Made by a program: the position numbers and the translations under genes. This document shows, one piece after another, positions 8,514 to 59,630 of a stretch of 64,000 nt of DNA (its first letter is position 1; every line of letters begins with the position of its first letter). Source of the DNA: an uncultured Acidobacteriota bacterium (GTDB lineage Bacteria > Acidobacteriota > Vicinamibacteria > Vicinamibacterales > UBA2999). The notes under the pieces are model-generated. The model was given only the letters and a program-made list of their open reading frames with translations, was not told the DNA's origin and made no database searches. The stretch is from assembly GCA_963815285.1 (NCBI GenBank), contig CAWFGB010000012.1, positions 194,777 to 258,776 on the forward strand, in the 5' to 3' direction.

Positions 8514-9386
8514 ATGTATTCCCCGGCCTTCGACTATCACCGCGCCTCTTCGCTCGCCGACGCGCATCGGTTGCTCGCGGCACATCCCGGCGCCAAGCTC
8601 CTGGCCGGCGGCCACAGCCTGATTCCGCTGCTCAAGCTCCGGCTTGCATCGCCGGCCGCGGTCATCGATATCGGCCGCGTTGACGAACTGCGCGGCATCA
8701 CCGAGAGCGGTAACCATGTCCGCATCGGCGCCCTCACTACCCACGCGGAAGTCGCGTCCTCGTCGGTTTTGCAGTCGATCGCACCGGCGCTGACCGACGC
8801 CGCCGGGCTTGTCGGCGATCCGGCCGTACGCAATCGGGGCACCGTTGGCGGCAACATCGCGCACGCCGACCCCGCCTCGGATCTGCCGACTGCGCTGGTG
8901 GCGCTCGGCGCCGACATCGTTTTGGCGCGAAAAGGCGCTGAGCGAACGATCGCTGCCGAGATCTTCTTTACCGGGATCATGACGACGGCGCTCGAAGAAC
9001 ACGAGATCATCTTGGCGGTGCTCATCCCCGCGGGCGGCGCGGGCCGGGGATCGGCCTACGTCAAATTCTCCCACCCGGCGTCGCGCTACGCGGTGGTCGG
9101 CGCCGCCGCCCTCGTCACACGCGCGGCCGGCCGATGTACGGCTGCCCGGGTGGCCCTGGGCGGGCTGGTGTCGCACGCCACTCGCTGCGCCGGCGTCGAG
9201 AAAGCGCTCATCGGCACGACCGGCGACGATGCCGCCATTTCGGCAGCAGCCACTGCTGCATCAGCCGATCTTGGTGACGATGTGACCGGCGATATCTACG
9301 CGTCCGCCGAGTACCGCCTGGCGATGGCGCCGGTGTTCGTCAAGCGGGCCATCGCCGCCGCGTTGGGGCGGACCGGGACGGACTGA
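8514..9386 (+). CDS. coxM: FAD-binding medium subunit (CoxM/CutM-like)
   Basis: MYSPAFDYHRASSLADAHRLL...LLAGGHSLIPLLKLRL is the FAD_binding_5 pattern. The start was moved to the ATG at 8514, 3 nt after the coxL stop. Confidence 0.9.
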   Translation: MYSPAFDYHRASSLADAHRLLAAHPGAKLLAGGHSLIPLLKLRLASPAAVIDIGRVDELRGITESGNHVRIGALTTHAEVASSSVLQSIAPALTDAAGLVGDPAVRNRGTVGGNIAHADPASDLPTALVALGADIVLARKGAERTIAAEIFFTGIMTTALEEHEIILAVLIPAGGAGRGSAYVKFSHPASRYAVVGAAALVTRAAGRCTAARVALGGLVSHATRCAGVEKALIGTTGDDAAISAAATAASADLGDDVTGDIYASAEYRLAMAPVFVKRAIAAALGRTGTD

Positions 9387-9423: not shown

Positions 9424-10326
9424 TTGCAGGAAGCGCTTGGCAATCAAGGCTACGTGGCGGAGCGCGGGCTCGCCGTCTCGATCTTCCTGGCGCTGCAGCT
9501 GAAGCGTCCGCTCTTCCTCGAGGGCGAAGCTGGCGTCGGCAAGACGGAGCTGGCCAAAGTCCTTGCCGCCACCCTCGGGACGACTTTGATCCGGCTGCAG
9601 TGCTACGAGGGTCTGGACATCACGCACGCGGTGTACGAGTGGAACTACCCGCGCCAGATCCTCGAGATTCGACTGCTCGAAGCCTCGCTGCGTGATGTGG
9701 CCGATGGTGACGACGTCCGACACCGGATCACTCGTGACCTTTTCTCCGAAGCGTTTCTAATCAAGCGGCCGCTGCTGAGGGCCATCGAAGCCTCGAACGA
9801 GCACCCACCGGTCTTGCTCATCGACGAGGTCGATCGCGCAGATGAGGAGTTCGAAGGCTATCTGCTGGAGCTGCTGTCGGACTTCCAGATCACCATTCCG
9901 GAGATCGGGACCATTCGCGCAACGAACCCGCCGATTGTGGTGATCACGTCGAATCGAACGCGAGAGGTGCACGACGCACTCAAACGCCGGTGCGTGTACG
10001 CCTGGATCGACTATCCCGATTTCGCGAAGGAACGACGCATCGTGGCCGCCAAGCTGCCCGGTGTGCCGGCGCAGCTGGCCGAGCAGGTGACGGCATTCGT
10101 GCAGGAACTGCGCACGACCGACTTGTACAAGGCCGCCGGCGTCTCGGAGACCCTGGATTGGGCCGCCGCGCTCGTCGCGCTCAACCACGCGACACTCGAT
10201 GCCGACACCATCGACCAGACGCTTGGCGTGCTGCTCAAGAATCAGGAAGATCTCGAGGCCGTGCGTGGCGAGCGCACGCGCATGCTGTTGGCGCGCGCGC
10301 TGGACCGAGGGACCAAACAAGCCTAG
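9424..10326 (+). CDS. coxD: MoxR-family AAA+ ATPase (CoxD-like)
   Basis: Walker A GEAGVGKT and Walker B LLIDEVDRA, with MoxR-like length. The TTG start comes from the track. A slightly more upstream start (for example CTG 9388) cannot be excluded. Confidence 0.85.
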   Translation: MQEALGNQGYVAERGLAVSIFLALQLKRPLFLEGEAGVGKTELAKVLAATLGTTLIRLQCYEGLDITHAVYEWNYPRQILEIRLLEASLRDVADGDDVRHRITRDLFSEAFLIKRPLLRAIEASNEHPPVLLIDEVDRADEEFEGYLLELLSDFQITIPEIGTIRATNPPIVVITSNRTREVHDALKRRCVYAWIDYPDFAKERRIVAAKLPGVPAQLAEQVTAFVQELRTTDLYKAAGVSETLDWAAALVALNHATLDADTIDQTLGVLLKNQEDLEAVRGERTRMLLARALDRGTKQA

Positions 10327-19882: not shown

Positions 19883-21022
19883 ATGAAAGTCGTCGTCATT
19901 GGGGCCGGCGTCTTCGGTTCGTGGACGGCGAAATTTCTCGCCGACGACGGCCACACCGTCACGCTGGTGGACGCATTTGGACCGGCGAACGGCCGCGCAA
20001 GCTCCGCGGATTATTCCCGCGTCATTCGGGCGGGGTACGGCGCCGACGAGATCTACTCACGCTGGGCGACGGACTCGCTGACCGATTGGCAACGGCTGTC
20101 AGACATCTCGGGCCAGACGCTGCTCGCCCGCACCGGGGCGCTGTTCCTGGGCGAACCTGGCAACCCCTACGTGCTCGACACTCATCGCACACTCGACCGT
20201 CTCGGGCTGGCCGTGGAGCTGATCGAGCCGGCGCTGCTTCACGGGCGTTTCGCGCAGATTGCGACCGAAGGGTTGGGCGTCACGCTGTTCGAGCAGGAGG
20301 CGGGCGTGATTCGCGCTCGGACGGCGGTGCAGGCTCTCGTCAACACTCTGGTTCGCTCCACCGGGCTCACCTACGTTCAGGCACAAGTGGAACGGGTCGA
20401 TGAAGACAGGACGACATGTCGCGTTCGATCGGCCGACGGCCGGGACTTCGAGGCCGACGTCTCGGTCTTTGCCTGCGGGCCCTGGCTTGCCACGGTGCTG
20501 CCAGACGCCGTTGGCTCGCGTGTTCGAGCGACGCGTCAAGAGGTGTTGTACTTCGGCGTGCCACCGGGCGATGGGCGCTTCTCAGTTCCGCAATTGCCAG
20601 TGTGGATTGATTTCACCGCTGGCTTCTACGGCATCCCCGACCTCGACGCGCTTGGGTTCAAAGTGGGTATCGATCGACACGGGCCATCGATCGATCCGGA
20701 CCGGCTCGATCGTGTGGTCGACCCGGAGCTGGTAGAGACAACGCGGCAATGGATCGGGCGCCGCTTTCCGGCCATGCAGGGCGCCCCGCTCGTCGATGCC
20801 CGCGTCTGCCAGTACCAAAACACATCCTCCGGAGATTTCGTCATCGATCGCCATCCCGCGTGGCCAACATGCTGGATCGTGGGTGGCGGGTCAGGTCACG
20901 GCTTCAAGCACGGCCCTGCGGTTGGGCGACATGTCGCTCGGCTCATTGCCGGCACGGAGCGAGTGCAGGAGCGCTTCTCTCTCGCCACCAAAGCGACAAC
21001 CGCTGCCCGGACCGTCTTCTAA
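19883..21022 (+). CDS. FAD-dependent oxidoreductase (DAO family, sarcosine/N-methyl-amino-acid oxidase-like)
   Basis: N-terminal Rossmann motif MKVVVIGAGVFGSWTA and a DAO-like length (379 aa). Confidence 0.85.
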   Translation: MKVVVIGAGVFGSWTAKFLADDGHTVTLVDAFGPANGRASSADYSRVIRAGYGADEIYSRWATDSLTDWQRLSDISGQTLLARTGALFLGEPGNPYVLDTHRTLDRLGLAVELIEPALLHGRFAQIATEGLGVTLFEQEAGVIRARTAVQALVNTLVRSTGLTYVQAQVERVDEDRTTCRVRSADGRDFEADVSVFACGPWLATVLPDAVGSRVRATRQEVLYFGVPPGDGRFSVPQLPVWIDFTAGFYGIPDLDALGFKVGIDRHGPSIDPDRLDRVVDPELVETTRQWIGRRFPAMQGAPLVDARVCQYQNTSSGDFVIDRHPAWPTCWIVGGGSGHGFKHGPAVGRHVARLIAGTERVQERFSLATKATTAARTVF

Positions 21023-21124
21023 CCTTCGCACGTCACGTTGCCCTCAGCATTCGGCGCTCGGCTCGCAAGGCTGACAGCCTTCGGCTAATGGGGCGGGCAT
21101 TTAGTGTCGAGCCAAGCCCCTAGG

Positions 21125-21168
21125 GCCTGAGAGCCTGGGGCCTGAGCCCTGAGGCCTGGGGCCTGAAG
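21125..21168. repeat. Short tandem repeat, GCCTGRG 7-8-bp units (about 6 copies)
   Basis: GCCTGAGA GCCTGGG GCCTGAG CCCTGAG GCCTGGG GCCTGAAG, in the convergent gap between the oxidoreductase and the TonB receptor. The same unit recurs at 58461-58502. Confidence 0.85.
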
Positions 21169-21175
21169 AGCGGGA

Positions 21176-23752
21176 TCAGAAGGAGAAGCGCCAGCCCATT
21201 TCCACGCGCCGCGCGGCCTGCGCCGATGTCGCTTGCATGAAGAAATCCGACGTCTCAACGCCGACAAAGTTGGACTTGTTCACGGTGTTGAGCAGGTTCG
21301 ATGCCCACAGATAGACCTCAAAGCGCCGTTGGCTTTCAGCCGGCCGTCCGCCCGGCCCCCCGGGCCCACGGGGGCCGCCACCGCCACCACCTGGACCGCG
21401 TTGCAGCAGTGCGCTGCCCGAGGGACGCATCGACGGCAGCGTCCATGACACCCGCAGGTCAGTCTGCGTGGTGGCGGTGCCCTGCAGACTGTTGCGCGTC
21501 ACACCGGCCGGCCGATCGTTGAAGAACGCATCACCGTTGTTATCACGGCCGGTCGTCCAGTTGTAGTAGCCACCCGAGTTCCACCGGCCGTTGACCGAAA
21601 TGAACAGGCCCACGCGCTGGATGGGCACGCCAACGTTCCAATTGAACCGGTGGCGCACTTCGCGAGTTCGCGCCCACTCGGACCCGAACTCGCCCGTCGC
21701 CGGCGGCGTGAACTCGTCGTCCGCGTCGTTCATGTTGTTCGACAAGCCATAGCGAACGTTGCTGAACATGCCCTGACGCGGCGAGTAGTTGAGATCGACG
21801 TTGAAGCCGACGCGGCGGGCGCGGCCGATCGACTGCACCAGCAACGCCCGGCCGTAGTTCGGATCGGGACGGACGCCGTCAACCGGCGCGTTGAGGTCGA
21901 GTGAACGGAATTCATTATTCGTCGACTCGTAGAAGGTATCGAAGTTCACGCGCATACCTTGCCGGAGCTGATGATTCAGGCCGACCGAGAAGCGTTGCCA
22001 CCGCGGCAGGTCGGCACCGCCCGCCAGGTCGAGACGCGTCGGTGGATCGCGTCGGGTAAAGATATTGCCGCCTTCATACGGGTTCGGGAAGGACGGATTC
22101 TGGATAACGACCTCTTCTTCGGTGGACCCCTGCGCCAGGCGAATCGACTCTTCTTCGACCCGAACGGACATCCAGTCATAGAACCAGCCATAGCCGGCGC
22201 GGAAGTTTGTCGTGTTACGGCGGAACGAACGCGAGACCCCCAAGCGTGGCGCAATCGCGCTGCGATCGCCGATACCACTCTGCAACTCGTAGCGCACGCC
22301 GGCACCGAAATTCCACCGCCACTTCACAAACTCGGCTTGCGCGAACGTCGCTGCCTGGGTCACGCCGACCGTCAACGGCTGCGCGCCGCGGCGCTGGGTA
22401 AACGTCGTCGGCAGCCCAAGGGCGAAGGCCGCGAGGTTGGTGAACGTGTACGTACCGAGTGAGTTGCGCAACTGCCCCTGCTCGTTGCGGTCGTAGTTGA
22501 TCAACGAGCCAACCCGCAACGTATAGGGACGCGCGACGAGCGTGAACATGGCATCGCCCATCACGGAGCGACCGCGATTGGTACCCGTGATCGAGGCCCC
22601 ACCGCGCCGGAAGGAGTTCTGAACGCTGATGGTCGGCGCGATCGTGTCGGGAACGATTTCGTTCCGCGCTTGATCGAATTGCAGGCGCATGTGGTACGGC
22701 CGCCGCTGACCGCCTTCGAGCGAGAACCGCAGTTCGTGGTTCACGCCCTCACTGGTGTAGCCACGCTCGGGATAATCGAGCTCCGAGATGCCCTGGTTGC
22801 CACGTTCCGTTGTGCTGCGCTCATACGACGTTCGAAACAGCGTCTGCTGCGTCAGCAGACCTTCGGTCCGGATCGAGATGCTGCGATTGTCGGACGGTTG
22901 TGTGAGAACCGCAATGTAAGGCCCGTCGAGCGTCACCGCGGAAATGCCCCGGGTATCTTCAGAGGACGAACCCTCGATGTTGGCGGAGAACGACACCCGA
23001 TTGCGCACGAGTGGTCCGGCGGCAAAGGCGTTCATACGAACCGATGTGCCCGCCTTGGTGCCAGCGGCGGCGGCCGCGTTACGTGCCGAGAGGCCGCTCG
23101 GGCGCAGGTTGAGTCCGGCATTGCCGCGCCACCGATCGACGCCTGGCCGCGTGGCGATCTCGACGCGGCCGCGGCCGACATCGTGGAACTCGGCGGAAAA
23201 AGCGTCACGGCGAACGACGATGCGCGCAATCTGATCGCGCGTCGGCAGACGCCCGCCGGAAAAGCCGTCGACGCGGATTGTGGCGCCTGGCCCGGCGATC
23301 TCCTCCAACATTCGCTGCAACTCATCCGGATCGTCGGGCAACTGATCGATCTCCGCCCGGCTCAACGCCTCAGTCAAACCACCAGCTTCGTTCGACTCCG
23401 TTGCCGACACGACAACGTCAGTTTCGATGTTGGCCAGTGCCAGCGGGACGGTGACCAGATGGGTCGTAACCTTCGGCGGATAGATCACTTCCACTTCTTC
23501 AGTGGCGAAGCCCGGCGCTGTGACAATCAACTTCAGGGCCTCGGTGCTACGCAGCGTAATGAGCGCAACGCCCTTGACGTCGGCCACCTGTTCGGCGATC
23601 AAGTCGGAGCCGGCAAGCACGATGATCGAGGCCCCCGGGATGGTCGCGCCCGAGGGGTCGGTGACCAAGACCGTCAGGCGACGATCCTGAGCTGATACGT
23701 TTGAAACCGCCAGGAACACCAGACTAAGGATAAGAACGAGGGTTGAGCGCAT
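21176..23752 (-). CDS. TonB-dependent receptor with carboxypeptidase-regulatory-like N-terminal domain
   Basis: 858 aa. It has a signal peptide, then LTVLVTDPSGATIPGASIIV (CarboxypepD_reg-like), a plug and a beta-barrel with C-terminus ...RRVEMGWRFSF. It contains a Gly/Pro-rich loop (RGPGGGGGGPRGPGGPGGRP). Confidence 0.85.
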   Translation of the reverse strand: MRSTLVLILSLVFLAVSNVSAQDRRLTVLVTDPSGATIPGASIIVLAGSDLIAEQVADVKGVALITLRSTEALKLIVTAPGFATEEVEVIYPPKVTTHLVTVPLALANIETDVVVSATESNEAGGLTEALSRAEIDQLPDDPDELQRMLEEIAGPGATIRVDGFSGGRLPTRDQIARIVVRRDAFSAEFHDVGRGRVEIATRPGVDRWRGNAGLNLRPSGLSARNAAAAAGTKAGTSVRMNAFAAGPLVRNRVSFSANIEGSSSEDTRGISAVTLDGPYIAVLTQPSDNRSISIRTEGLLTQQTLFRTSYERSTTERGNQGISELDYPERGYTSEGVNHELRFSLEGGQRRPYHMRLQFDQARNEIVPDTIAPTISVQNSFRRGGASITGTNRGRSVMGDAMFTLVARPYTLRVGSLINYDRNEQGQLRNSLGTYTFTNLAAFALGLPTTFTQRRGAQPLTVGVTQAATFAQAEFVKWRWNFGAGVRYELQSGIGDRSAIAPRLGVSRSFRRNTTNFRAGYGWFYDWMSVRVEEESIRLAQGSTEEEVVIQNPSFPNPYEGGNIFTRRDPPTRLDLAGGADLPRWQRFSVGLNHQLRQGMRVNFDTFYESTNNEFRSLDLNAPVDGVRPDPNYGRALLVQSIGRARRVGFNVDLNYSPRQGMFSNVRYGLSNNMNDADDEFTPPATGEFGSEWARTREVRHRFNWNVGVPIQRVGLFISVNGRWNSGGYYNWTTGRDNNGDAFFNDRPAGVTRNSLQGTATTQTDLRVSWTLPSMRPSGSALLQRGPGGGGGGPRGPGGPGGRPAESQRRFEVYLWASNLLNTVNKSNFVGVETSDFFMQATSAQAARRVEMGWRFSF

Positions 23753-29335: not shown

Positions 29336-29399
29336 CGACTTTTCTGATGGGCCGACATCCAATCAGCCTCAATTCCCCGTCTAAGGTTCCATGTTCCCA

Positions 29400-29429
29400 G
29401 GAACCTTGGAACTTTGGAACCTTGGAACT
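29400..29429. repeat. Short tandem repeat GGAACYTT (8 bp, about 4 copies) in the efflux-operon leader
   Basis: GGAACCTT GGAACTTT GGAACCTT GGAACT, ending 7 nt before the ATG. The first unit pairs with AAGGTTCC (29383-29390) to form an 8-bp hairpin. Confidence 0.85.
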
Positions 29430-29436
29430 ATAAGCA

Positions 29437-30699
29437 ATGGATATTCAGCGACCGGCATCCGTGGCGCGGCAGAAGAAAATGCGCCGAATCATGTTCGCCG
29501 TGGTCGGCGTTCTCGTCATCGGCGTCGTCTCGGTCGTCCTCGCCCGGCTCAAGCCGGCGGCGCCCACGGTGGAGCAAGCCACGGTCTGGGTGGACAGCGT
29601 CAAGCGTGGCGACATGAACCGCAACGTGCGCGGTCTGGGCACGCTGATGCCCCTCGACGAAGCGCGGCGTCTGATTCCGGCGGTCACCCAGGGGCGCGTC
29701 GAGCGCATTTTGATCCGCCCTGGTGTCGAGGTCACGCCTGATACGGTGATCCTGGAACTGAGCGAGCCCACCGTGCAGCAGGCACTCGCCGACGCCGAGC
29801 AGCAAATGCGCGGCGCCGAAGCGGACTACACCAGCCTGGAGGCGCGGCTCGAAAGCGATCGACTGACTCAGCGCTCAGCCGCGGCGGCCATCTCGGCGGA
29901 TTATCGCGCGGCGCAACTGCAGAAGGAGGTCGACGAAAACCTCGCGAAAGACGGCCTTGTCTCGGCGCTCCAGCTCAAGACCTCGACGGTGCGCGCCGAA
30001 TCGCTCGCTGAGCGTAATACCATCGCCCTGGAGAACATCAAGATCGCGGAGAACAACGTCAAGGCACAGCTGATGGCGCAGCAGGCGCGTGTCGATCAGC
30101 TGCGTTCGCAGGTCATCCTGCGCCGCCAGCAGGTCGAACAGCTCCGCGTGCGGGCCGGGATGAACGGCGTACTCGAACAGGTTGCGGTCAACGTTGGACA
30201 GCAGGTCTCGCCTGGCGCCAATCTCGCCCGCGTCGCCGACCCGACGCGCCTCAAGGCCGAACTGCGGATTGCAGAAACGCAAGCGCGGGATCTGACCATC
30301 GGGCAGAAGGCGGAGATTGACACGCGCAACGGCATCATCCAGGGCCGTGTGATGCGGATTGACCCGGCCGCCCAACAGGGCACCGTCACCGTAGACGTCG
30401 AACTCCTGGGAGAATTGCCGCGCGGCGCCCGTCCTGACCTGAGCGTCGACGGGACGATCGAACTCGAGCGGCTCACCAACGTCTTGTATGTAGGACGCCC
30501 CGCGTTTGGCCAGGAGCAGAGTTCGGTCGGGCTCTTCAAGGTGGACGCCACCACCGGCGAAGCCGAGCGGGTCACGGTGCAGCTCGGTCGCAGTGCGGTC
30601 AACACCATCGAGGTGATCAAGGGGTTGTCGGAAGGCGATCGCGTAGTGCTGTCGGACATGTCAGCCTGGGATCAGTTCGAACGAATTCGTTTGCGATAA
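29437..30699 (+). CDS. Efflux transporter periplasmic adaptor subunit (HlyD/MacA family)
   Basis: N-terminal TM anchor, a long coiled-coil region (...AEADYTSLEARLESDRL...QARVDQLRSQV...) and beta-barrel/lipoyl-like flanks. It lies directly upstream of MacB-type ABC genes. Confidence 0.85.
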   Translation: MDIQRPASVARQKKMRRIMFAVVGVLVIGVVSVVLARLKPAAPTVEQATVWVDSVKRGDMNRNVRGLGTLMPLDEARRLIPAVTQGRVERILIRPGVEVTPDTVILELSEPTVQQALADAEQQMRGAEADYTSLEARLESDRLTQRSAAAAISADYRAAQLQKEVDENLAKDGLVSALQLKTSTVRAESLAERNTIALENIKIAENNVKAQLMAQQARVDQLRSQVILRRQQVEQLRVRAGMNGVLEQVAVNVGQQVSPGANLARVADPTRLKAELRIAETQARDLTIGQKAEIDTRNGIIQGRVMRIDPAAQQGTVTVDVELLGELPRGARPDLSVDGTIELERLTNVLYVGRPAFGQEQSSVGLFKVDATTGEAERVTVQLGRSAVNTIEVIKGLSEGDRVVLSDMSAWDQFERIRLR

Positions 30700-41528: not shown

Positions 41529-41605
<77 letters not shown>

Positions 41606-41642
41606 ATCTTGCTTCTCTCTTGCTTCTTGGCCCTGGCTTTCG

Positions 41643-45168: not shown

Positions 45169-47394
45169 CTACAACACACTGATGGGATCGATGTCGACTG
45201 ACGCTTTGCGTGCGATTTCGGGTGCCGCTGCGAGCGCGTCGCGGAGCGCGCCGCGCATCGCCAGGCGTGAGGTCCCCTTGAGAAAGAACTGCGCGCGGTG
45301 TTCGCCACGGAGTCGGGTCAACGGCGCCGGTGCCGGCCCGAGAACCACAAACCCTCCGGTCGCGCGTTCTTCTGTCCGGCGCGCCAGGTCGGCGGCCGCT
45401 TCCATCGCTGCGTCGTACGACTTCCCCCGCACCACGACGTTGACCATCGCGATGAGCGGGGGGTAGCGCATCTTCTGCCGGAAGTCGAGTTCCTTGGCGA
45501 AGAACCCCGGATAGTCCTGTGCGGTTGCGAGGCGGATACTGTAGTGCCCGGGAAAGAGCGTCTGAATGATCGCCTCACCGGCTTGTTGGCCACGACCCGC
45601 ACGGCCGGCGACCTGTGTCAGCAGCTGAAAGGTGCGCTCCGCGGCGCGAAAGTCTGCGAGCCCGAGGCCGACATCCGCCGAGATCACACCCACCAGGGTG
45701 ACCTGCGGGAAGTCGTGCCCCTTGGCGATCATCTGGGTGCCGACGAGGATGTCGAGGTCCTGTTTCGCAAAGCGATTCAGCAATCCGGCCAGGCTGCCAC
45801 GCCGGCGAACGGTGTCGCGATCGACGCGCCCGATCCGCGCGCCGGGAAACAACGATTGCACCTCCGCTTCCACGCGCTCGGTCCCAAAACCGATATGTTC
45901 CAGATAGGGGGCCGCGCACTGCTGGCACGTCTTCGGCACGATCCGTGAGAAGTTGCAGTAGTGACAGCGCGCCCGCCACTCCCGCCGTCCCGTATGCACC
46001 GTCAGCGAGACGCTGCAGTTCGGACACTCCAGGGTCCCTCCGCACTGACGGCACACCACCGCTGTAGCAAACCCGCGCCGATTGAGCAGCACGAGCACTT
46101 GCTCGCGCCGATCCAGCCGCAGCTCAATTGACGCGCGCAGCGCACGCGAGAGGATCACGTCCGGTCCTTCCTCGGCATACTCCTCGCGCATGTTCACGAT
46201 CTTGACCGCTGCGAGCGGACGGTCGAGCACGCGCCGCGTGAGCGTGACGAGCTCATAGCGCTTCTGCTGCGCGTTGTAGAACGATTCCATCGACGGCGTC
46301 GCAGAACCCAGCACGACGAGCGCACCGGCAAACTTTCCGCGCATCACCGCGACATCGCGACCGTGGTAGCGCGGCGTTTCTTCCTGCTTGTAGGACGTGT
46401 CGTGTTCTTCATCCACGATGATGAGGCCAGGCTTGGCGAGCGGCGTGAACACGGCGGAGCGGGTCCCGATGACGACATCGACTTCGCCGCGCCGGACGCG
46501 GTGCCACTGATCGTGCCGTTCGCCGTCGGACAGGCCGCTGTGCTGGATCGCCACGCCCGTGCCGAAGCGGGCGCGAAAGACCGCCGCCATCGCAGGCGTG
46601 AGCGCGATCTCCGGCACCATCATCAACACTCCGCGGCCGGCCCGTCGCACCGCATCGGCCAGGTGCAGATACACCTCGGTTTTGCCGCTCCCGGTGATGC
46701 CATGCAGGAGCGCGACCCGAAACTCGTGGGTGTCGGCCAGGTCGCGCAGACGCCCCAGGGCCAGCTGCTGTTCAGCCGTCAGTCCCCGGTCCGCGGTATC
46801 AGCCGCAGATGTGGCGCCGTGGCCCGACGCAAACGGATCGCGCTCCTGGCGCTCTTGCCGGATCGTGACCAGCCCCATGGTCTCGAGGCGCGCGACCACG
46901 CCAGCCGAGATACCGCGCGCGGCGAGATGCGGCGCCGGGATTCCGTCAGGTGCGCCGTTCAGCTGCAGCACGGCGGCTGCCTGCTTTGCACTGAGCGTGT
47001 CGGCGCGACTCGCGGCATCGCGCCCCGCGGCAGTCAGCGCCACCGTGCGAACCGTGCGAAACGCATGAACGCGCGTGGTGAGCGCGTGCGGCGGCATGGC
47101 CATCGACAGCGTCGCGCCTGGGCCGGCGACGTAGTAGTCCCCGACCCAGTCCGCGAGCTCGATGACGTCGTGCGGGAGATACGGCTCGGTGTCGAGCACG
47201 TCGATCAGGTCCCGCAGCTCGAAATCACCACGCGGCGGCTCGGCCTCGCCGATGACCACGCCGGTCAGCGTGCGACTTCCCAGCGGCACGACCACACGCG
47301 CGCCAGCCGGTGGCGTCGCGAGCCCATCGGGGACCGTGTAGGTCAGCAGATCGAGCGCAGGGACAGGAACCGCGACCGAGACAAGTCGTGCCAC
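45169..47394 (-). CDS. priA: Primosomal protein N' (replication restart helicase PriA)
   Basis: 741 aa. Walker A LLHGITGSGKTEVY, DEEH box IIVDEEHD and a Cys-rich zinc region CRQCGGTLECPNCSVSLTVH...CHYCNF. Confidence 0.95.
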   Translation of the reverse strand: MARLVSVAVPVPALDLLTYTVPDGLATPPAGARVVVPLGSRTLTGVVIGEAEPPRGDFELRDLIDVLDTEPYLPHDVIELADWVGDYYVAGPGATLSMAMPPHALTTRVHAFRTVRTVALTAAGRDAASRADTLSAKQAAAVLQLNGAPDGIPAPHLAARGISAGVVARLETMGLVTIRQERQERDPFASGHGATSAADTADRGLTAEQQLALGRLRDLADTHEFRVALLHGITGSGKTEVYLHLADAVRRAGRGVLMMVPEIALTPAMAAVFRARFGTGVAIQHSGLSDGERHDQWHRVRRGEVDVVIGTRSAVFTPLAKPGLIIVDEEHDTSYKQEETPRYHGRDVAVMRGKFAGALVVLGSATPSMESFYNAQQKRYELVTLTRRVLDRPLAAVKIVNMREEYAEEGPDVILSRALRASIELRLDRREQVLVLLNRRGFATAVVCRQCGGTLECPNCSVSLTVHTGRREWRARCHYCNFSRIVPKTCQQCAAPYLEHIGFGTERVEAEVQSLFPGARIGRVDRDTVRRRGSLAGLLNRFAKQDLDILVGTQMIAKGHDFPQVTLVGVISADVGLGLADFRAAERTFQLLTQVAGRAGRGQQAGEAIIQTLFPGHYSIRLATAQDYPGFFAKELDFRQKMRYPPLIAMVNVVVRGKSYDAAMEAAADLARRTEERATGGFVVLGPAPAPLTRLRGEHRAQFFLKGTSRLAMRGALRDALAAAPEIARKASVDIDPISVL

Positions 47395-47401
47395 CGCGGG
47401 C

Positions 47402-48214
47402 TTACTCGGTGCCTTGCAGGATGGCCCGAACTCTCTTCATGTCGTCCCACACTTCGCGCTTGGCCGACGGGTTGCGGAGCAGATACGCCGGGTGGAAAGT
47501 GGGAATCAGGGTGGCGCCACGATAATTGAACGATCGCCCGCGCAGGCGGGTGATCGGATCGGTTGTGCGTAGCAGCGACTGCGCCGCGAATTTGCCCAGC
47601 GCGACAATCACCTTTGGCTTGATCGCCGCCACCTGCTGGAACAGAAACGGCTCGCACTGCTCTACTTCGTCCGGCTCAGGATTGCGATTGCCCGGCGGCC
47701 GGCACTTGATGATGTTGGCGATGTACACCTGGTCGCGCCGCAATCCGATGGCCTCGATGATCTTGGTCAGCAGTTGACCGGCCCGTCCGACAAACGGCTC
47801 GCCCTGCAAATCTTCATCCGCGCCTGGTGCTTCCCCGACGAACATCAAGTCAGCATCCGAATTGCCCACACCGAAGACGACCTGCTTCCGGCCAAGGGCG
47901 TGCAGCTTGCAGCGCGTGCAGGCCGGGCCGATTTCTTCGCGCAGCATGGTCAAGATTCGCATGCTGCCGGTGCCGGATTCGGCGCGGCTCGAGCTCGCGC
48001 TTTCCTGCGGCGGGAGGCTCACGATCGCAGCGCCTTCAGTGGCAGGGAACTCGGCTTGTTCGCCGGCGTGGCCAACCGAGGCCTCAGCCAGGGCAGCACT
48101 GATCGCGCGCTTCCGCCACACCGGGTCGCGGCTGATGCCGTCGACGCCGAGCTGCTCAAAGAATCTTAAATGTTCCGCGAGGTTGGAACGATCCACAGAG
48201 ATCACAGAATACAC
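47402..48214 (-). CDS. Uracil-DNA glycosylase, family 4 type
   Basis: ...[37 protein letters not shown]...[10 protein letters not shown]...CRPPGNRNP...HPAYLLRNP. The GTG start at 48214 lies inside the left inverted-repeat arm of the 48190-48402 element. Confidence 0.85.
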
Positions 48215-48402
48215 AGAATTGTCTTACTAGAATTGGCTTACCCAGAATTGGCCATCACAACTCAGCTCTGAGCTCCGAACTCTGAGTTCTCAGCTCTGGC
48301 TCTCAGCTCTCAGCGCTTTCAGCCTATTGCCCTTTAGCCTCTTAGCCCTGTTGGCTGTTGGCCCGTGACTCCTTTCGGTGTTCTCTGTGATTTCTGTGGA
48401 TC
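48190..48402. repeat. 213-bp inverted-repeat-bounded element (MITE/REP-like) filled with short tandem arrays
   Basis: The left arm is GATCCACAGAGATCACAGAATACAC (48190-48214). The right arm is GTGTTCTCTGTGATTTCTGTGGATC (48378-48402), whose reverse complement matches the left arm at 22/25 positions. The interior holds AGAATTG(G) x3, CTCAGCT-like units, TTAGCC x2-3 and GTTGGC x2. Confidence 0.45.
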
Positions 48403-49586
48403 GCTTCTATTCTGTCGAGGATGCTGGAGGCGATGCCGCTCTTCGACTGTAACGGCACCTCTTCGACACCGTCGGACGTGACCAGCGTCACTGCGTTTGT
48501 GTCACCGTCGAAGCCGACGCCTGGACGGGAGACATCGTTGGCCACAATGAGGTCAACGCCCTTGCGCTCGAGCTTGTCTTTCGCGTGAGCGACAACGTCA
48601 TGCGTTTCGGCGGCGAAGCCCACGAGCACGGGGCGTCCCGCCTCACGCCGCGAGGCCAGCTGACCAAGGTCTGCGAGGACATCTCGCGTACGGCTGAGCG
48701 TCAGCGTCAGCGGACCATCGCTCTTCGCGATTTTCTCGACGTTGGGAGCGGCCATCGTATAGTCGGCCACCGCGGCAGCCATGATGACGACGTCAGCCTC
48801 GGACGCGCGGGCCATCACCGCTTGGTGCATGTCAGCCGCGCTGCGCACGTTGACCACTTCCTCGACTTTCGGCGCGGCCAACTTCACTGGTCCTGAGACG
48901 AGCGTCACATGCGCACCGCGCACGGCCGCTTCGGCGGCAAGCGCGTAGCCCATCTTGCCGCTCGACCGATTCCCGATGAAGCGCACCGGATCAATATCTT
49001 CGAGGGTGGGCCCTGCCGTCACCAGCACGCGTGAACCGGCAAGCGCCCCTTTGGGGCGAAGCATCTGCATGACGGCATCGACAATCTCCGCCGGCTCGGC
49101 AAGCCGCCCCTTGCCGATCCAGCCACACGCCAGGTAGCCTTCGCCGGGCTCGACGAACCTGACACCGCGGGCCGCGAGCGTTTCCAGGTTCTTCACCACC
49201 GCCGGGTGCGCGAACATGTTGGTGTTCATTGCCGGCGCCATCAACACCGGCGCCGTCGTCGCGACGTAAAGCGAAGACAGAAAATCATCCGCGATACCGT
49301 TGGCGAACTTGCCGATGATGTTTGCGGTGGCGGGCGCGATCAGCAGCAAATCAGCCGTGGACGCCAGCGAGATATGCTCGATGTCGGCATTGGCCCCGGG
49401 CTTCCACTGATCGGTGATCACCTCGCGCCGCGTAATCGCCTCGAACGTGACCGGACCCACGAACCGGCGGGCCGAGCGGGTCATGACGGCGGTGACGTCG
49501 TGACCCTGTTGTTGCAGGCCGCGCGCCACTTCCACCGCCTTGTAGGCACCGATGCCGCCGCACACGCCGAGTGCAATCAGGGACAT
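48342..49586 (-). CDS. coaBC: Bifunctional phosphopantothenoylcysteine decarboxylase / phosphopantothenate-cysteine ligase
   Basis: 414 aa. N-terminal flavoprotein domain (IALGVCGGIGAYKAVE...) and C-terminal CoaB domain (...VTAGPTLEDIDPVRFIGNRSSGKMG...). The last roughly 20 codons are encoded by repeat sequence. Confidence 0.95.
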   Translation of the reverse strand: MSLIALGVCGGIGAYKAVEVARGLQQQGHDVTAVMTRSARRFVGPVTFEAITRREVITDQWKPGANADIEHISLASTADLLLIAPATANIIGKFANGIADDFLSSLYVATTAPVLMAPAMNTNMFAHPAVVKNLETLAARGVRFVEPGEGYLACGWIGKGRLAEPAEIVDAVMQMLRPKGALAGSRVLVTAGPTLEDIDPVRFIGNRSSGKMGYALAAEAAVRGAHVTLVSGPVKLAAPKVEEVVNVRSAADMHQAVMARASEADVVIMAAAVADYTMAAPNVEKIAKSDGPLTLTLSRTRDVLADLGQLASRREAGRPVLVGFAAETHDVVAHAKDKLERKGVDLIVANDVSRPGVGFDGDTNAVTLVTSDGVEEVPLQSKSGIASSILDRIEAIHRNHREHRKESRANSQQG

Positions 49587-56459: not shown

Positions 56460-57544
56460 GAGTCGCCGTCGATGCACGCGAACTTGCAGGTCGGCCGACT
56501 GGAGTCGGACGCTACCTGGCGGAATTGCTCGATAGCTGGGCCGATTCCCCCGACGCGCAGCGGCACGACTGGCGCTTCTTCGCTCACCAGCCTGTCACCG
56601 TCCCCACTGCCTTCTCCTCGTCAGCCGTAGTGATTACGGGTTCAGGCGGCACGCGCTGGGAGCAAACGGCGTTGGCGCGCGCGCTCGGCCGCGAAAAGCC
56701 GGATGTCCTGTTCGCGCCCGCTTACACGGCCCCGCTGACGGCTCCGTGCCCCGTCGCCGTCACCATTCATGACGTGTCCTTCGCGGCGCATCCCGAGTGG
56801 TTTTCGTTTCGCGAAGGGCTTCGCCGGCGCATGCTGACGGCATGGTCGGCGCGCCGTGCGCGGCTGGTCATCACCGATTCGCGATTCTCTCGAGACGAGA
56901 TCGAGAGACACATCGGCATCCCCACCGGCCGCATTCGGGTGATTCCGCTTGGGATTCGGCGTCCTCTGCAGCGCCCGGAGGTGGCACGCGAGCCGATCAT
57001 CCTGTATGTGGGCTCAATTTTCCGGCGACGCCATGTCGAGACGCTCATCGACGCCTTTGTCAATCATGTCGCCACCCGCGTGCCCGGCAGTCGACTCGAG
57101 ATTGTCGGCGAGAACCGGATGTACCCGCCCGGTAACCCCGCAGAGGCGCTGAACCGCTGCGCACCTGAGGTCGCCAATCGCGTCACCGTCCGCTCCTACG
57201 TCGATGAGGCAACGCTGCGTGGTCTTTATCAGCGGGCGTCAGTGTTCGCGTTCCTGTCGTCGTACGAAGGATTCGGGCTGACGCCGCTCGAAGCGTTGGC
57301 CTCGGGCGTTCCTCCCGTGGTGCTCGAGACACCTGTCGCCCGCGAAGTCTACGGCGCTGCAGCGAGCTACGTCCCGACGATCTCGTCGGTAGGAGTCCTG
57401 GCCGACACATTGACGGAGTTGCTGCTCGATTCTCAGGCACGCCGGACGGTGCTTGCCCACGCCGAGGAGGTCCTGGCGCGCTACGACTGGGCCCGTACCG
57501 CCGAGACGACCTTGCGCGCACTCGAGGAGGCGGCCGGTGCCTGA
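56456..57544 (+). CDS. Glycosyltransferase family 4 (GT-B)
   Basis: MRVAVDARELAGRPTGVGRY... and YEGFGLTPLEALASGVPPV. ATGA overlap with the previous gene. Confidence 0.8.
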   Translation: MRVAVDARELAGRPTGVGRYLAELLDSWADSPDAQRHDWRFFAHQPVTVPTAFSSSAVVITGSGGTRWEQTALARALGREKPDVLFAPAYTAPLTAPCPVAVTIHDVSFAAHPEWFSFREGLRRRMLTAWSARRARLVITDSRFSRDEIERHIGIPTGRIRVIPLGIRRPLQRPEVAREPIILYVGSIFRRRHVETLIDAFVNHVATRVPGSRLEIVGENRMYPPGNPAEALNRCAPEVANRVTVRSYVDEATLRGLYQRASVFAFLSSYEGFGLTPLEALASGVPPVVLETPVAREVYGAAASYVPTISSVGVLADTLTELLLDSQARRTVLAHAEEVLARYDWARTAETTLRALEEAAGA

Positions 57545-58352
57545 CGAACTGACGATTGTCATCGTCAGCCACAACGTTCGCGGGGAGCTCGCGGCGTGCC
57601 TGCAATCGCTCGTCGGGAACACTGCTCCGTACCCGACCGAGATTGTGGTGGTGGACAACGCGTCCACCGACGGCACGCTGGAGATGGTTCGAGCGTCATG
57701 GCCCTCGGTGAAGGTGATCGAGGCTGGGGGCAACCTCGGTTTCGCGCGGGCCAACAACGTCGGCATTCGTGCCACGTCCAGCGAGTTCGTGCTGCTGCTC
57801 AATCCGGATACCGTCGTGCCACCCGGCGCTATCGCGACGCTGATTCGAGGCCTGGCGATGCACCCCGATGGCGCCGCGGCGGGACCGCGGCTTGTCGACG
57901 ACGAGGGATTTCCCGAGTTGTCCTTCGGGTGGACCATCGGACCCCTTGGGGAGCTTCGCCAGAAGATCGTCGGCCGCTTATACGCTCGGCGCGTCCGCCA
58001 GGCCGTGCGCGTGGTCGATCGCTGGTCTCGCGAAGCCGGTCCCCGCGAGTGGGTCAGCGGCGCCTGCATGCTGCTGCGACGCGCGGATCTGGAGGCAGTC
58101 GGCCTGCTTGACGAACGTTACTTTATGTACACCGAGGACGTGGACCTGTGCGTCTCGCTCCGACAGCGGGGCCGGTCCGTCTACTACGTCCCCACGTCCG
58201 AGGTGCTCCACCTGCGCGGACGATCCTCTGGTCGCAATCCCAACACCGAGCGCATGCGCCGAATAAGTCAGATCGCGTTTTACGAGAAACATCATCCCGG
58301 GTGGGTACCGCTGCTCCGCAGCTACCTGCGGTTGACCGGCAAGTTCCCATGA
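57537..58352 (+). CDS. Glycosyltransferase family 2 (GT-A)
   Basis: LTIVIVSHNVRGEL...VVVDNASTDGT...NLGFARANN...LLLNPDT is the GT2 DxD-containing fold. The GTG start overlaps the previous stop. Confidence 0.85.
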   Translation: MPDELTIVIVSHNVRGELAACLQSLVGNTAPYPTEIVVVDNASTDGTLEMVRASWPSVKVIEAGGNLGFARANNVGIRATSSEFVLLLNPDTVVPPGAIATLIRGLAMHPDGAAAGPRLVDDEGFPELSFGWTIGPLGELRQKIVGRLYARRVRQAVRVVDRWSREAGPREWVSGACMLLRRADLEAVGLLDERYFMYTEDVDLCVSLRQRGRSVYYVPTSEVLHLRGRSSGRNPNTERMRRISQIAFYEKHHPGWVPLLRSYLRLTGKFP

Positions 58353-58360
58353 CCGGGGGA

Positions 58361-58502
58361 CAGGCTCCAGGCCCCAGGGTCCAGAGATCACACGGACGAG
58401 CCCAGGTGTTCTCGGTTCAAAAAGGCAGCAAGCCTCTGTCTGTGTTCTTGCGGCTCCGAGGCCTGGGGCCTGGGGCCTGGCGCCTGGCGCCTGAGGCCTG
58501 AG
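58361..58502. repeat. Composite intergenic repeat region: inverted CCAGGCCCCAGG / CCTGGGGCCTGG arms plus GCCTGRS 7-bp tandem array (about 6 copies)
   Basis: CCAGGCCCCAGG (58367-58378) is the exact reverse complement of CCTGGGGCCTGG (58462-58473, and again at 58469-58480). The array GCCTGGG GCCTGGG GCCTGGC GCCTGGC GCCTGAG GCCTGAG spans 58461-58502. The interior carries CAGAGATCACA (58382-58392), identical to 48196-48206. Confidence 0.75.
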
Positions 58503-58517
58503 AAGTAGACTGGTGGC

Positions 58518-59630
58518 GTGCGGATTGCCATCGATGCCCGGAAGCTCCACGACTTCGGCATTGGCACGTACATCCGCAACGTGCTCGTCGGCTTGGCGGC
58601 GATCGACCAGGACACCGAGTTCATCGTCCTCTCTCCCCCGGGGGATGCCGACGCTATCAACGATCTGGGCGCCAATTTTCGAGCCGTGCCCGAAACGGCA
58701 CGACCGTACTCGATCGGCGAGCAGGTCTGGGTTCCGCTCAGCCTCGTGCGCGAACGCGCGCACCTGTTGCATGAACCACACTACGTCCTGCCGCCCGCCA
58801 CGCGCTGCCGTACGGTGGTGACGATTCACGATTGTATTCACCTGATGTTTCCGCAGTACCTGCCCAACCGACTCGCGCACCTCTACGCGCGCGCGTCGAT
58901 GTGGAGCGCGGTGCACAAGTCCGATCGGATTCTGACCGTTTCAGAAGCGTCGAAGCGAGACATCCTGCGCTTCTTCGACATTGCCGCCGACAAGGTCTCC
59001 GTCATCTACAACGCGATCGACGAACGCTTCCTCGCGCCACCCGACGAAGAGCGCATGGACCAGATTCGGCAGCGTTACCAACTCGATCACCCATTCCTGC
59101 TCTACGTCGGCAACATCAAGAAGCACAAGAATCTCGAGCGGCTGATCGATGCCTTCGGCCGCGCGCGCGCCGCCGGCCTCGCTGACTTGAGGCTGGTGAT
59201 CATCGGCGATGAGATCTCGAAGTATCCGCCGCTGCGCCAGTCCGTCCACCGGCATCGGCTGGACAAACACGTGCGCTTTCTCGGCTTTCAGCCCTACGAC
59301 ACGCTGGCGGCATTCTATCGGCTCGCGCGCGCGTTCGTGTTCCCGTCGCTGTATGAAGGATTTGGTCTGCCGCCGCTCGAGGCCATGGCATGCGGCACGC
59401 CCGTCGTCACGTCGAATGTGTCATCGTTGCCGGAGGTGGCCGGAGGCGCGGCCATCCTCGTCGATCCGTACGAGCCGGCGTCGATTGCCGAAGGCATCGG
59501 CCGGGCGGTCACGGAGGAGTCCACGCGAGCGGACCTTATCGCACGCGGTCTGGCGCGGGCGCGCGACTTCTCGTGGTCGCAGTCCGCAACCTCCATTCAC
59601 CGCATCTACATGGACGTGCTCGAGCGGTGA
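58518..59630 (+). CDS. Glycosyltransferase family 4 (GT-B)
   Basis: (M)RIAIDARKLHDFGIGTYIRN... and YEGFGLPPLEAMACGTPVV. GTG start. Confidence 0.85.
   Translation: MRIAIDARKLHDFGIGTYIRNVLVGLAAIDQDTEFIVLSPPGDADAINDLGANFRAVPETARPYSIGEQVWVPLSLVRERAHLLHEPHYVLPPATRCRTVVTIHDCIHLMFPQYLPNRLAHLYARASMWSAVHKSDRILTVSEASKRDILRFFDIAADKVSVIYNAIDERFLAPPDEERMDQIRQRYQLDHPFLLYVGNIKKHKNLERLIDAFGRARAAGLADLRLVIIGDEISKYPPLRQSVHRHRLDKHVRFLGFQPYDTLAAFYRLARAFVFPSLYEGFGLPPLEAMACGTPVVTSNVSSLPEVAGGAAILVDPYEPASIAEGIGRAVTEESTRADLIARGLARARDFSWSQSATSIHRIYMDVLER

Follow-up and report, generated by a model that had tools for sequence, protein, structure and literature searches.

The DNA analysed here is a window of 64,000 nucleotides from an uncultured bacterium of the Acidobacteriota (contig CAWFGB010000012.1 of assembly GCA_963815285.1, positions 194,777 to 258,776), which homologues of its uracil-DNA glycosylase (UDG) place in the Vicinamibacterales, soil bacteria that are abundant and for the most part uncultured. 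On the minus strand of the window, coaBC and the downstream udg gene meet in an inverted repeat, one arm of which is translated as the end of CoaBC and the other of which contains the candidate start codons of udg. The arms are probably a selected pairing element and not the relic of a mobile element. We give an even chance to a fuller proposal, that they form a long-range mRNA stem, closed over a hypervariable loop, which keeps translation of udg dependent on translation of coaBC.

According to this proposal, the last translated codons of coaBC (the 5′ arm on the mRNA) would pair over ~25–35 bp with the first codons of udg (the 3′ arm). Sequence between the arms would be looped out and free of sequence constraint, and would turn over rapidly through insertions and replication slippage of 5–15-nt units. 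The closed stem would block initiation at udg until a ribosome finishing coaBC melted the 5′ arm and exposed the udg start, which would make this translational coupling of the “RNA unfolding” type. Coupling of that type, in which the downstream start is shut within an inhibitory helix until ribosomes on the upstream gene melt it, is well described (PMC12548453). Coupling by termination-reinitiation reportedly needs overlapping genes or very short distances (PMC10666635). The stem would thus preserve the dependence of udg on coaBC despite an untranslated spacer of 127–1270 nt, and a clade that had acquired such a spacer could keep the two genes coupled only by means of such a helix.

Arms and reading frames at the coaBC-udg junction

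The minus strand of the window carries priA (45169–47394), udg, coaBC (48342–49586), gmk and yicC. Pfam confirmed the udg product as a family-4 uracil-DNA glycosylase (domain at aa 114–260) and the coaBC product as CoaBC (Flavoprotein and DFP), with the DFP domain ending at aa 369 of 414. Homology of coaBC to relatives, as delimited by Pfam and tblastn boundaries, covers residues 1–394 (48405–49586, minus strand) and closes with the LDRIE codons at 48419–48405. The 5′ arm begins directly after these codons, where CoaBC homology stops in relatives. From there the open reading frame (ORF) runs through the whole arm and into the loop, where it ends at a TAA codon (48342–48344, minus strand) 60 nt after LDRIE.

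On the other side, three in-frame GTG codons lie within the 3′ arm, at 48214–48212, 48205–48203 and 48196–48194, and all are candidate starts of udg. The longest udg ORF (47402–48214) starts at the first of them, and the second serves as the start in the database gene call (P0001). The third, near the base of the stem, is homologous to the ATG or GTG of the “MDR...” start in relatives without arms; measured from this ancestral-homologous start, as indicated by Pfam and the starts of relatives, udg spans 47402–48196 on the minus strand. At its outer end the 3′ arm consists, over nine bases (GTG GAT CGT, 48196–48188), of the native udg start.

The arms themselves form an inverted repeat at 48189–48218 and 48374–48403, with 87% complementarity over 30 nt and 155 nt between them, which ranks first among all inverted repeats (within 2 kb) in the whole 64-kb window. 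A first-pass annotation had matched 22 of 25 positions between 48190–48214 and 48378–48402; that match holds and extends to the 30 nt given here. Its reading of the frames was also accurate: the left arm carries the GTG at 48214–48212 with the codons VYSVISVD, and in the right arm the codons read AIHRNHREH, after which come RKESRANSQQG and the TAA at 48344–48342. On the mRNA, the 5′ arm on the coaBC side (GCGAUCCACAGAAAUCACAGAGAACACCGAA; 48374–48404, minus strand) gives the CoaBC tail A395-IHRNHREHR on translation and consists of 9-nt (3-codon) CACAGAnnn units, and the 3′ arm on the udg side (UUCUGUGUAUUCUGUGAUCUCUGUGGAUCGU; 48188–48218, minus strand) holds the three GTGs. Tandem Repeats Finder (TRF) resolved both arms into 9-nt tandem units, CACAGAATA ×2.9 and its complement TTTCTGTGA ×2.9. 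Since the unit equals three codons, gain or loss of a copy preserves both reading frames. In the window, clusters of CACAGA/TCTGTG are confined to this locus.

No promoter-like or terminator-like site was found in the coaBC-udg junction. Together with translation of the 5′ arm and the placement of the udg starts in the 3′ arm, this matches the RNA-unfolding model. Sequestration of the start by sequence of the upstream ORF is a computational prediction, based on the three GTGs of the 3′ arm, on the stem in minimum-free-energy and ensemble folds, and on the coaBC ORF, which spans the 5′ arm in all eight arm-bearing loci (described below), with its stop +36 to +84 nt after LDRIE.

The junction in related genomes

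The family-4 uracil-DNA glycosylase gene stands immediately downstream of coaBC throughout the Acidobacteriota (window positions 47402–49586 and the 145 related loci that were fetched, in which the adjacency is retained), and the order gmk-coaBC-udg-priA is kept in annotated relatives. In E. coli, coaBC (dfp) lies immediately upstream of dut. The association of coaBC with genes that guard DNA against uracil may be a recurring one.

In relatives whose UDG is 50–76% identical, CoaBC homology stops at window residues ~394–396 (...ILDRxE, by tblastn), UDG homology starts at residues ~7–12, and the CoaBC tail is short (~10–25 residues). The distance between the homology ends has a median of 50 nt (145 related loci). 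These boundaries coincide exactly with those of the arms, which bears out the earlier suggestion that both gene ends had been remodelled. The udg start of these relatives, usually ATG/GTG GAT CGx (“MDR...”), overlaps the coaBC stop or lies within ~10 nt of it, so that tight coupling is the ancestral state.

Both arms were present at the orthologous junction in the window and in the related loci L001, L002, L083, L084, L085/L086, L169/L170 and L171–173, which represent at least six lineages of one Vicinamibacterales clade and whose UDGs are 77–96% identical. A 27-nt core of the 3′ arm is identical in five other lineages, and L085 differs at one codon. The 5′ arm is conserved in L001, L002, L083, L084, L085, L169 and L171. 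The loop is homologous to that of the window only in L001 and L002, where it is a mosaic with unit-sized indels, and is unrelated in L083, L084, L085, L169 and L171. In a scan of metagenomes with the UDG protein, the relatives among the matches listed were 55–67% identical and none had arms.

Interiors measure 122–212 nt, ~0.9 kb or ~1.27 kb across the arm-bearing lineages, and their contents differ as much as their lengths. That of L084 is ~165 nt and non-repetitive; that of L085 is ~210 nt with CTGCTGACT ×3.6; and L171–173 have AGCCAA, GCCAA and ACCAA arrays. In L169/L170 the interior (~0.9 kb) contains AAGCCGA heptamers and an rve-type insertion sequence (IS) remnant with its own inverted termini (GGAGACATAGGTAAC.../...GTTACCTATGTCTCC; L169 ~735–1345, L170 ~30–640), which encodes, on the opposite strand, an 80-aa fragment of an rve integrase core (E = 6.8e-6, below the Pfam cut-off). 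The ~1.27-kb interior of L083 combines AGCAGAA-type heptamers with a 177-aa ORF (L083:1737–2270) that has no Pfam match. The 3′ part of this ORF and the sequence downstream of it are recognisable in L169 (~540–690), which indicates that a gene was inserted into the loop and then partly deleted. Contigs with identical UDG differ in repeat number and type (L171 vs. L172 vs. L173; L169 vs. L170). Thus the loop varies at the population level, although part of this variation may be an assembly artefact.

Some related loci depart from this layout. L087, basal on the UDG tree, has the 3′ arm only, with 11 intergenic nt separating the first GTG from the coaBC stop; a candidate ancestral local hairpin at this locus was not significant (z = −1.6, 6% of shuffles). 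L168, which is nested in the clade, has no arms. It carries instead a 275-nt array of ~50-nt palindromic units (×~4.5, at 9726–10000) and an ATG GAT CGT start behind a purine-rich leader. Independent and unrelated repeat expansions are found at the same junction in two further loci, L027 (~9800–10000; AGCCTGA/AGCCCAA/AGCCTGT heptamers over 239 nt) and L034 (~8940–9030; a 15-nt unit ×4, read as a CoaBC tail of (SPAGS)n). The coaBC-udg junction is a recurrent hot spot of repeat expansion.

The two loci that share the loop of the window have peculiarities of their own. In L002, a 21-nt tandem duplication of the udg start region (CTGTGATCTCTGTGGATCGTC ×2, L002:1872–1915) puts a second GTG-GAT-CGT copy outside the predicted stem. 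In L001 (ENA ERZ25039536 contig_192671), the 96% identical relative, gene calls are broken up or merged at yicC, gmk-coaBC and the ABC transporter. Such fragmentation is typical of long-read indel errors, hence single-base indels in the L001 element are unreliable.

Constraint on the arms acts on nucleotide sequence

Third codon positions were compared across six lineages. Those of the arms were invariant at 10 of 12 positions (3′ arm) and 8 of 11 (5′ arm), as against 7 of 35 in the adjoining conserved codons of coaBC and 9 of 28 in those of udg, where pairwise third-position identity is 0.57–0.63. Taken as synonymous sites, the contrast is 18/23 invariant in the arms vs. 16/63 in the flanks (Fisher p = 1.4e-5). 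Arm codons are locally rare (AGA makes up 3% of Arg codons and TCT 4% of Ser codons), and the GC content at third positions is 0.44–0.50 in the arms vs. 0.80 in the neighbouring genes. The encoded peptides vary among lineages (HRN, HRD, HRK, HRI; I, F, S). Variable peptides and locally disfavoured codons argue that the constraint acts on the nucleotide sequence; arm conservation is explained neither by selection on the peptides nor by codon bias.

These figures bear on the view that the arms are a non-functional by-product of events in DNA, in which a 9-nt unit slipped at the udg start, an inverted template switch (a quasipalindrome) copied it onto the coaBC end, and the resulting hairpin-prone DNA attracted more slippage and insertions. 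Both arms are indeed tandem 9-mers, and the native coaBC end GACAGAATC, found in L087 and L168 where the 5′ arm is missing, resembles the unit CACAGAATC and may have been the seed. The 3′ arm standing alone in L087, the abundance of heptamer-dominated arrays in these genomes (184 arrays, ~97 per Mb; see below) and the unrelated repeat blocks that arose at this junction in L027, L034 and L168 fit this history as well. It accounts for the origin of the arms, however, and not for their persistence. Synonymous sites of the arms have been conserved despite 57–63% synonymous identity in the flanks, codon bias and complete replacement of the interior, and gene conversion between the arms could not keep separate lineages from diverging. 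On balance we consider a by-product without function unlikely.

Pairing of the arms

Folding of the minus-strand RNA, proposed in the first-pass annotation as a check on a stem, gave −89.9 kcal/mol (z = −5.7) with the arms paired, and the stem itself has −43 kcal/mol in the window. Arm-arm duplex energies range from −31 to −61 kcal/mol in all eight loci, with z = −4.6 to −9.8 relative to shuffles in seven of them. The duplexes comprise 28–35 pairs, up to 23 of them consecutive and perfect (L083, L169). When full-length sequences were folded, extended by 60 nt of coding sequence at either end, a 10-bp core had pair probabilities of 0.78–0.999 in 7 of 8 folds, including constructs of 1112 nt and 1467 nt. 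The 3′ arm of L002 is duplicated, and it is the upstream copy to which the 5′ arm pairs.

Covariation was assessed in a hand-registered alignment of the arms, from which one extra 9-nt unit was removed in L084 and one in L171. In register, 85.6% of cells pair, vs. 32–50% when the partner is slid by 1–3 columns. One-sided changes in the arms are mostly to G·U. Compensatory variation, which a selected stem should display, is present but slight: two compensated pairs in a single lineage, L085, one from G-C to A-U and one from U-A to A-U. The earlier idea of an mRNA stem that occludes the UDG start thus draws its support from the comparative data as a whole (arms kept while the interior is replaced, synonymous conservation, a predicted stem in each locus), and its compensation component is weak. 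We infer that pairing acts in RNA rather than in DNA, and that the stem controls translation of udg.

Several observations weigh against a coupling stem. Two-sided compensation is confined to L085, and shuffles reach the observed values in 25 of 500 trials for cells paired and 30 of 500 for the covariation score, which is marginal. A sense-strand signature of G·U pairing was sought in duplex energies and no consistent bias between sense and antisense appeared, so that these energies do not separate pairing at the RNA level from pairing at the DNA level. L168, within the clade, has its 275-nt spacer without arms, and comparable complementarity is absent from the expanded coaBC-udg spacers of other lineages (z −1.5 to +1.6); a spacer can therefore grow without a stem evolving in response. 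L002 has uncompensated substitutions in its 5′ arm, and its duplicated start region escapes the stem. The 3′ arm, moreover, is almost invariant instead of covarying, which suggests a sequence-specific constraint (on the start region, or for recognition by a protein or RNase) besides or instead of pairing. Finally, the 23-bp perfect duplex of L083 and L169 would also be a substrate for RNase III.

The last two points each lead to an alternative. The arms could be paired protein-binding sites in DNA or RNA, at which a regulator binds the triple TCTGTG/CACAGA at 9-nt spacing, either by looping or as two operators. Near-invariance of the 3′ arm in place of covariation, and a hexamer repeated at fixed spacing that clusters nowhere else in the window, are what such sites would look like. 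A candidate binding protein is lacking, as is any other site in the window or in the flanks of relatives; the 9-nt spacing is off the helical repeat; and the changes in L085 leave the arms complementary to each other, something that a motif common to both would not need in that form. We hold binding sites to be very unlikely. A CRP-like half-site (TGTGATCT) and GATC pairs in the arms were also considered and dismissed, as the half-sites are 150–1200 bp apart and are conserved in some arms but not in all.

The main functional rival is cleavage of the duplex by RNase III, alone or with coupling. As a processing or decay site, the stem would be cut to separate the coaBC and udg messages and to excise a junk spacer. 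The 23 consecutive perfect pairs of L083 and L169, among 28–35 pairs overall, are suited to this enzyme, and a conserved stem around a hypervariable loop resembles an intervening sequence. A 5′-UTR (untranslated region) element that is targeted by RNase III and acts with a heptanucleotide repeat tract is described for Haemophilus influenzae (PMC12721329). A cut within the stem, however, would remove the coaBC stop and the udg starts, which looks destructive, and putative processing by itself leaves unexplained why the arms are kept in frame and translated. Processing in place of coupling strikes us as improbable, on a level with the by-product view above. In a variant compatible with coupling, RNase III would destroy the 5′ end of udg when coaBC is not translated, and this may be part of how a coupling stem works.

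Probably a clade-specific structure and not a transposable element

The first-pass annotation offered, as its other reading, a MITE/REP-like insertion (a miniature inverted-repeat transposable element or a repetitive extragenic palindrome). This went unsupported, for neither further copies nor a target-site duplication came to light. A second copy of an arm with up to 3 mismatches does not occur in the 64-kb window (nor in any of 100 shuffles), and a fuzzy search (up to 4 mismatches) of 168 sequences, 1.86 Mb of related DNA, found matches at the orthologous junction and no non-orthologous copies. The flanks (...GGAAC|GATCC and GGATC|GCTTC) contain no direct repeat. Viral contigs gave no match to the element, and plasmids none beyond the low-complexity CTCAGCT run. 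With Rfam 15 the only family match in the window was a tRNA; for 47900–48700 the best hit was IMES-2, at 16.4 bits against a threshold of 54.7 bits.

An 11-mer of the left arm, CAGAGATCACA, had been noted in a second repeat region of the window, and it does recur there, at 58382–58392. As a hint of a dispersed family it fails, since the match is at chance level: its window-wide E-value is 5.3, and six other 11–12-mers match equally well. A link to the 58361–58502 region is rejected, and a colinear 9-mer, GGTGTTCTC, gains interest only in hindsight.

A relic would be an inverted-repeat-bounded, MITE-like element that inserted once in the ancestor of the clade and had its termini captured into both frames. 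Terminal inverted repeats are present (30 nt, 87%) and bound a low-GC segment, both genes have altered ends by comparison with distant relatives, and the locus does accept mobile DNA, as the IS remnant of L169/L170 attests. Yet the interiors of different lineages are unrelated, the IS termini of L169/L170 (GGAGACATAGGTAAC) are unlike the arms, and an inactive single-copy relic would not retain its termini while losing its interior. The outer 3′ arm (GTG GAT CGT), furthermore, belongs natively to udg, with ATG GAT CGx as its homologue in relatives that lack arms. Nor does the single locus resemble REP sequences or bacterial interspersed mosaic elements (BIMEs), which number hundreds of imperfect palindromes of 20–40 nt. 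A mobile-element relic is accordingly given very little weight, slightly less than the binding sites. The element is best explained as a structure that is specific to the clade and acts in cis within the coaBC-udg operon, and not as a transposable element.

Inverted repeats that flank a 120–1270-bp segment directly upstream of a gene, with polymorphic repeat copy number, could also point to an invertible segment (inverton) or an on/off phase-variation switch. Every interior that can be oriented, by comparison or by its AGCNGAR-type repeats (window/L001/L002, L083, L169/L170 and L171–173), has the same orientation, however; there is no promoter-like site inside and no recombinase among the genes neighbouring the locus; and inversion would swap coding arms that are not identical. 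Of all the alternatives we find this one the hardest to credit. Ribosomal bypassing and a CoaBC-UDG fusion were dismissed, since the arms repeat each other in inverted and not in direct orientation.

Tandem repeats in the loop and elsewhere

TRF and base composition define the loop (48219–48373, minus strand) as a hypervariable mosaic of tandem units, in agreement with the first description of the interior. TRF reported CTCAGCT ×7.9 (48261–48314), 15-nt units ×2.9 (48210–48252), 16-nt units ×2.4 (48312–48349) and CTGTTGG ×2.1 (48348–48362). On the sense strand these read as GCCAACA ×2, GGCTAArG ×2, AGCTGAG-type heptamers ×~8 and GCCAATTCT-containing 14–15-mers ×3. GC content in the loop is ~0.50–0.53 vs. 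~0.65 in the flanks, and 63% of its sense-strand bases are purines.

Tandem arrays with a period of 5–9 and at least 3 copies numbered 184 in 1.89 Mb of related Acidobacteriota loci (~97 per Mb). Heptamers account for 96 of the 184; units are very diverse, and no single heptamer is genome-wide. Bacteria have earlier been described as having an excess of heptameric repeats (PMC4692102), and heptamers that lie between genes, close to start codons, are known in other phyla (PMC4679880). Abundant short tandem arrays thus look like a general trait of these Acidobacteriota genomes, and, as arrays are common across these loci, the repeat-filled loop would be a local expression of that general tendency.

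Comparable repeat blocks occur elsewhere in the window, at 21124–21166, 29400–29428 and 58460–58500. The last of these overlaps the second-best inverted repeat of the window (58353–58491; 29 nt, 83%), in which a left array of CAGGCTC/CAGGCCC/CAGGGTC stands opposite a right array of GGCCTGG ×5.9. The two arrays nearly fill the 165-nt spacer between co-directional ORFs at 57453–58352 and 58518–59630, and their architecture, inverted tandem units beside a stop and a start, is like that of the coaBC-udg element, with unrelated units. GGCCTGA-type heptamers (×6, 21118–21166) lie between convergent ORFs at 19883–21022 (plus strand) and 21176–23752 (minus strand), preceded from ~21040 by further short repeats (TTCGGC, GCTCGGC). 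At 29376–29428, GGAACCTT ×3.6 stands just upstream of an ATG at 29437 and follows its inverted complement AAGGTTCC (~29384), forming a small hairpin-plus-repeat block in a 5′ leader. A tRNA-Pro(GGG) gene on the minus strand (41529–41627) is abutted by an 11-nt direct repeat (TCTTGCTTCTC ×1.9).

Variation in the loop raises a further, highly speculative idea to which we attach only a small chance, that stem and repeat loop together are a heritable, reversible tuning knob for DNA repair. Frequent slippage would alter the length and composition of the loop, and loop length would govern the readiness with which the stem closes, and thereby the amount of UDG made per coaBC translation event. If so, populations would carry standing variation in the rate of C-to-T mutation, and a housekeeping repair gene would be governed by a contingency locus built on RNA structure. 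As a corollary, a conserved stem would offer a safe harbour in which repeats, IS elements and genes can accumulate without uncoupling the flanking genes.

Comparison with known systems

If the coupling proposal is right, selection holds two cistrons together through a long-range RNA helix, and the helix persists while the spacer grows from a few bases to more than 1 kb and takes in repeats, an IS element and an ORF. RNA-unfolding coupling would then extend far beyond textbook distances, two 30-nt arms of in-frame 9-nt units would amount to a compact, portable “coupling clamp” design, and a hypervariable repeat tract would be linked to expression of a DNA-repair enzyme in the Vicinamibacterales. 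Should the stem turn out to be functionless, the locus still shows slippage and inverted duplication remodelling the ends of essential genes.

The closest counterparts are E. coli rpmI-rplT and the coat-lysis and coat-replicase pairs of phage MS2, for which RNA-unfolding coupling, including action over distance, is established (PMC12548453). As in those systems, a downstream start would be paired with sequence of the upstream ORF, and the genes are co-directional and apparently co-transcribed. The distances are unlike, with +52 nt between stop and start in rpmI-rplT as compared with 127–145 nt here and up to ~1.27 kb in relatives. Both arms of the coaBC-udg stem are coding and made of 9-nt tandem units, and the loop is hypervariable, repeat-filled and tolerant of an IS remnant and an ORF. 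The function is established there and predicted from sequence here.

With MITEs and REP/BIME elements the arms share the form of short inverted repeats at a gene junction, with GC content below that of the surroundings. They differ in being single-copy and locus-specific, without a target-site duplication and with an unconserved interior, and part of one “terminus” is native gene sequence. The long conserved stem around a variable insert, a potential RNase III substrate, recalls the intervening sequences and processing stems of rRNA operons. Here, however, the context is an mRNA, both strands of the stem are translated, and excision would remove a stop and starts.

The loop invites comparison with other repeat systems. 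In simple sequence repeat (SSR) contingency loci, exemplified by the heptanucleotide tracts upstream of H. influenzae genes (PMC12721329), untranslated short tandem repeats likewise stand beside a start codon. Copy number is polymorphic here as well, between near-identical genomes with identical UDG (L171/172/173, L169/170) and as unit-sized indels among the window, L001 and L002, although part of this may be artefact. Unlike those loci, the loop is a mosaic of many unit types and not one tract, its repeats lie in a looped-out region and not between promoter elements or inside an ORF, and no on/off logic is evident for what is a housekeeping repair enzyme. The heptamer repeats of Cyanobacteria and Beggiatoaceae (short tandemly repeated repetitive sequences, STRR; TAACTGA; PMC4679880) share with the loop a heptamer period, an intergenic position and frequent proximity to start codons. 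At the coaBC-udg junction, in contrast, the units are diverse and form the variable rather than the conserved part of the locus.

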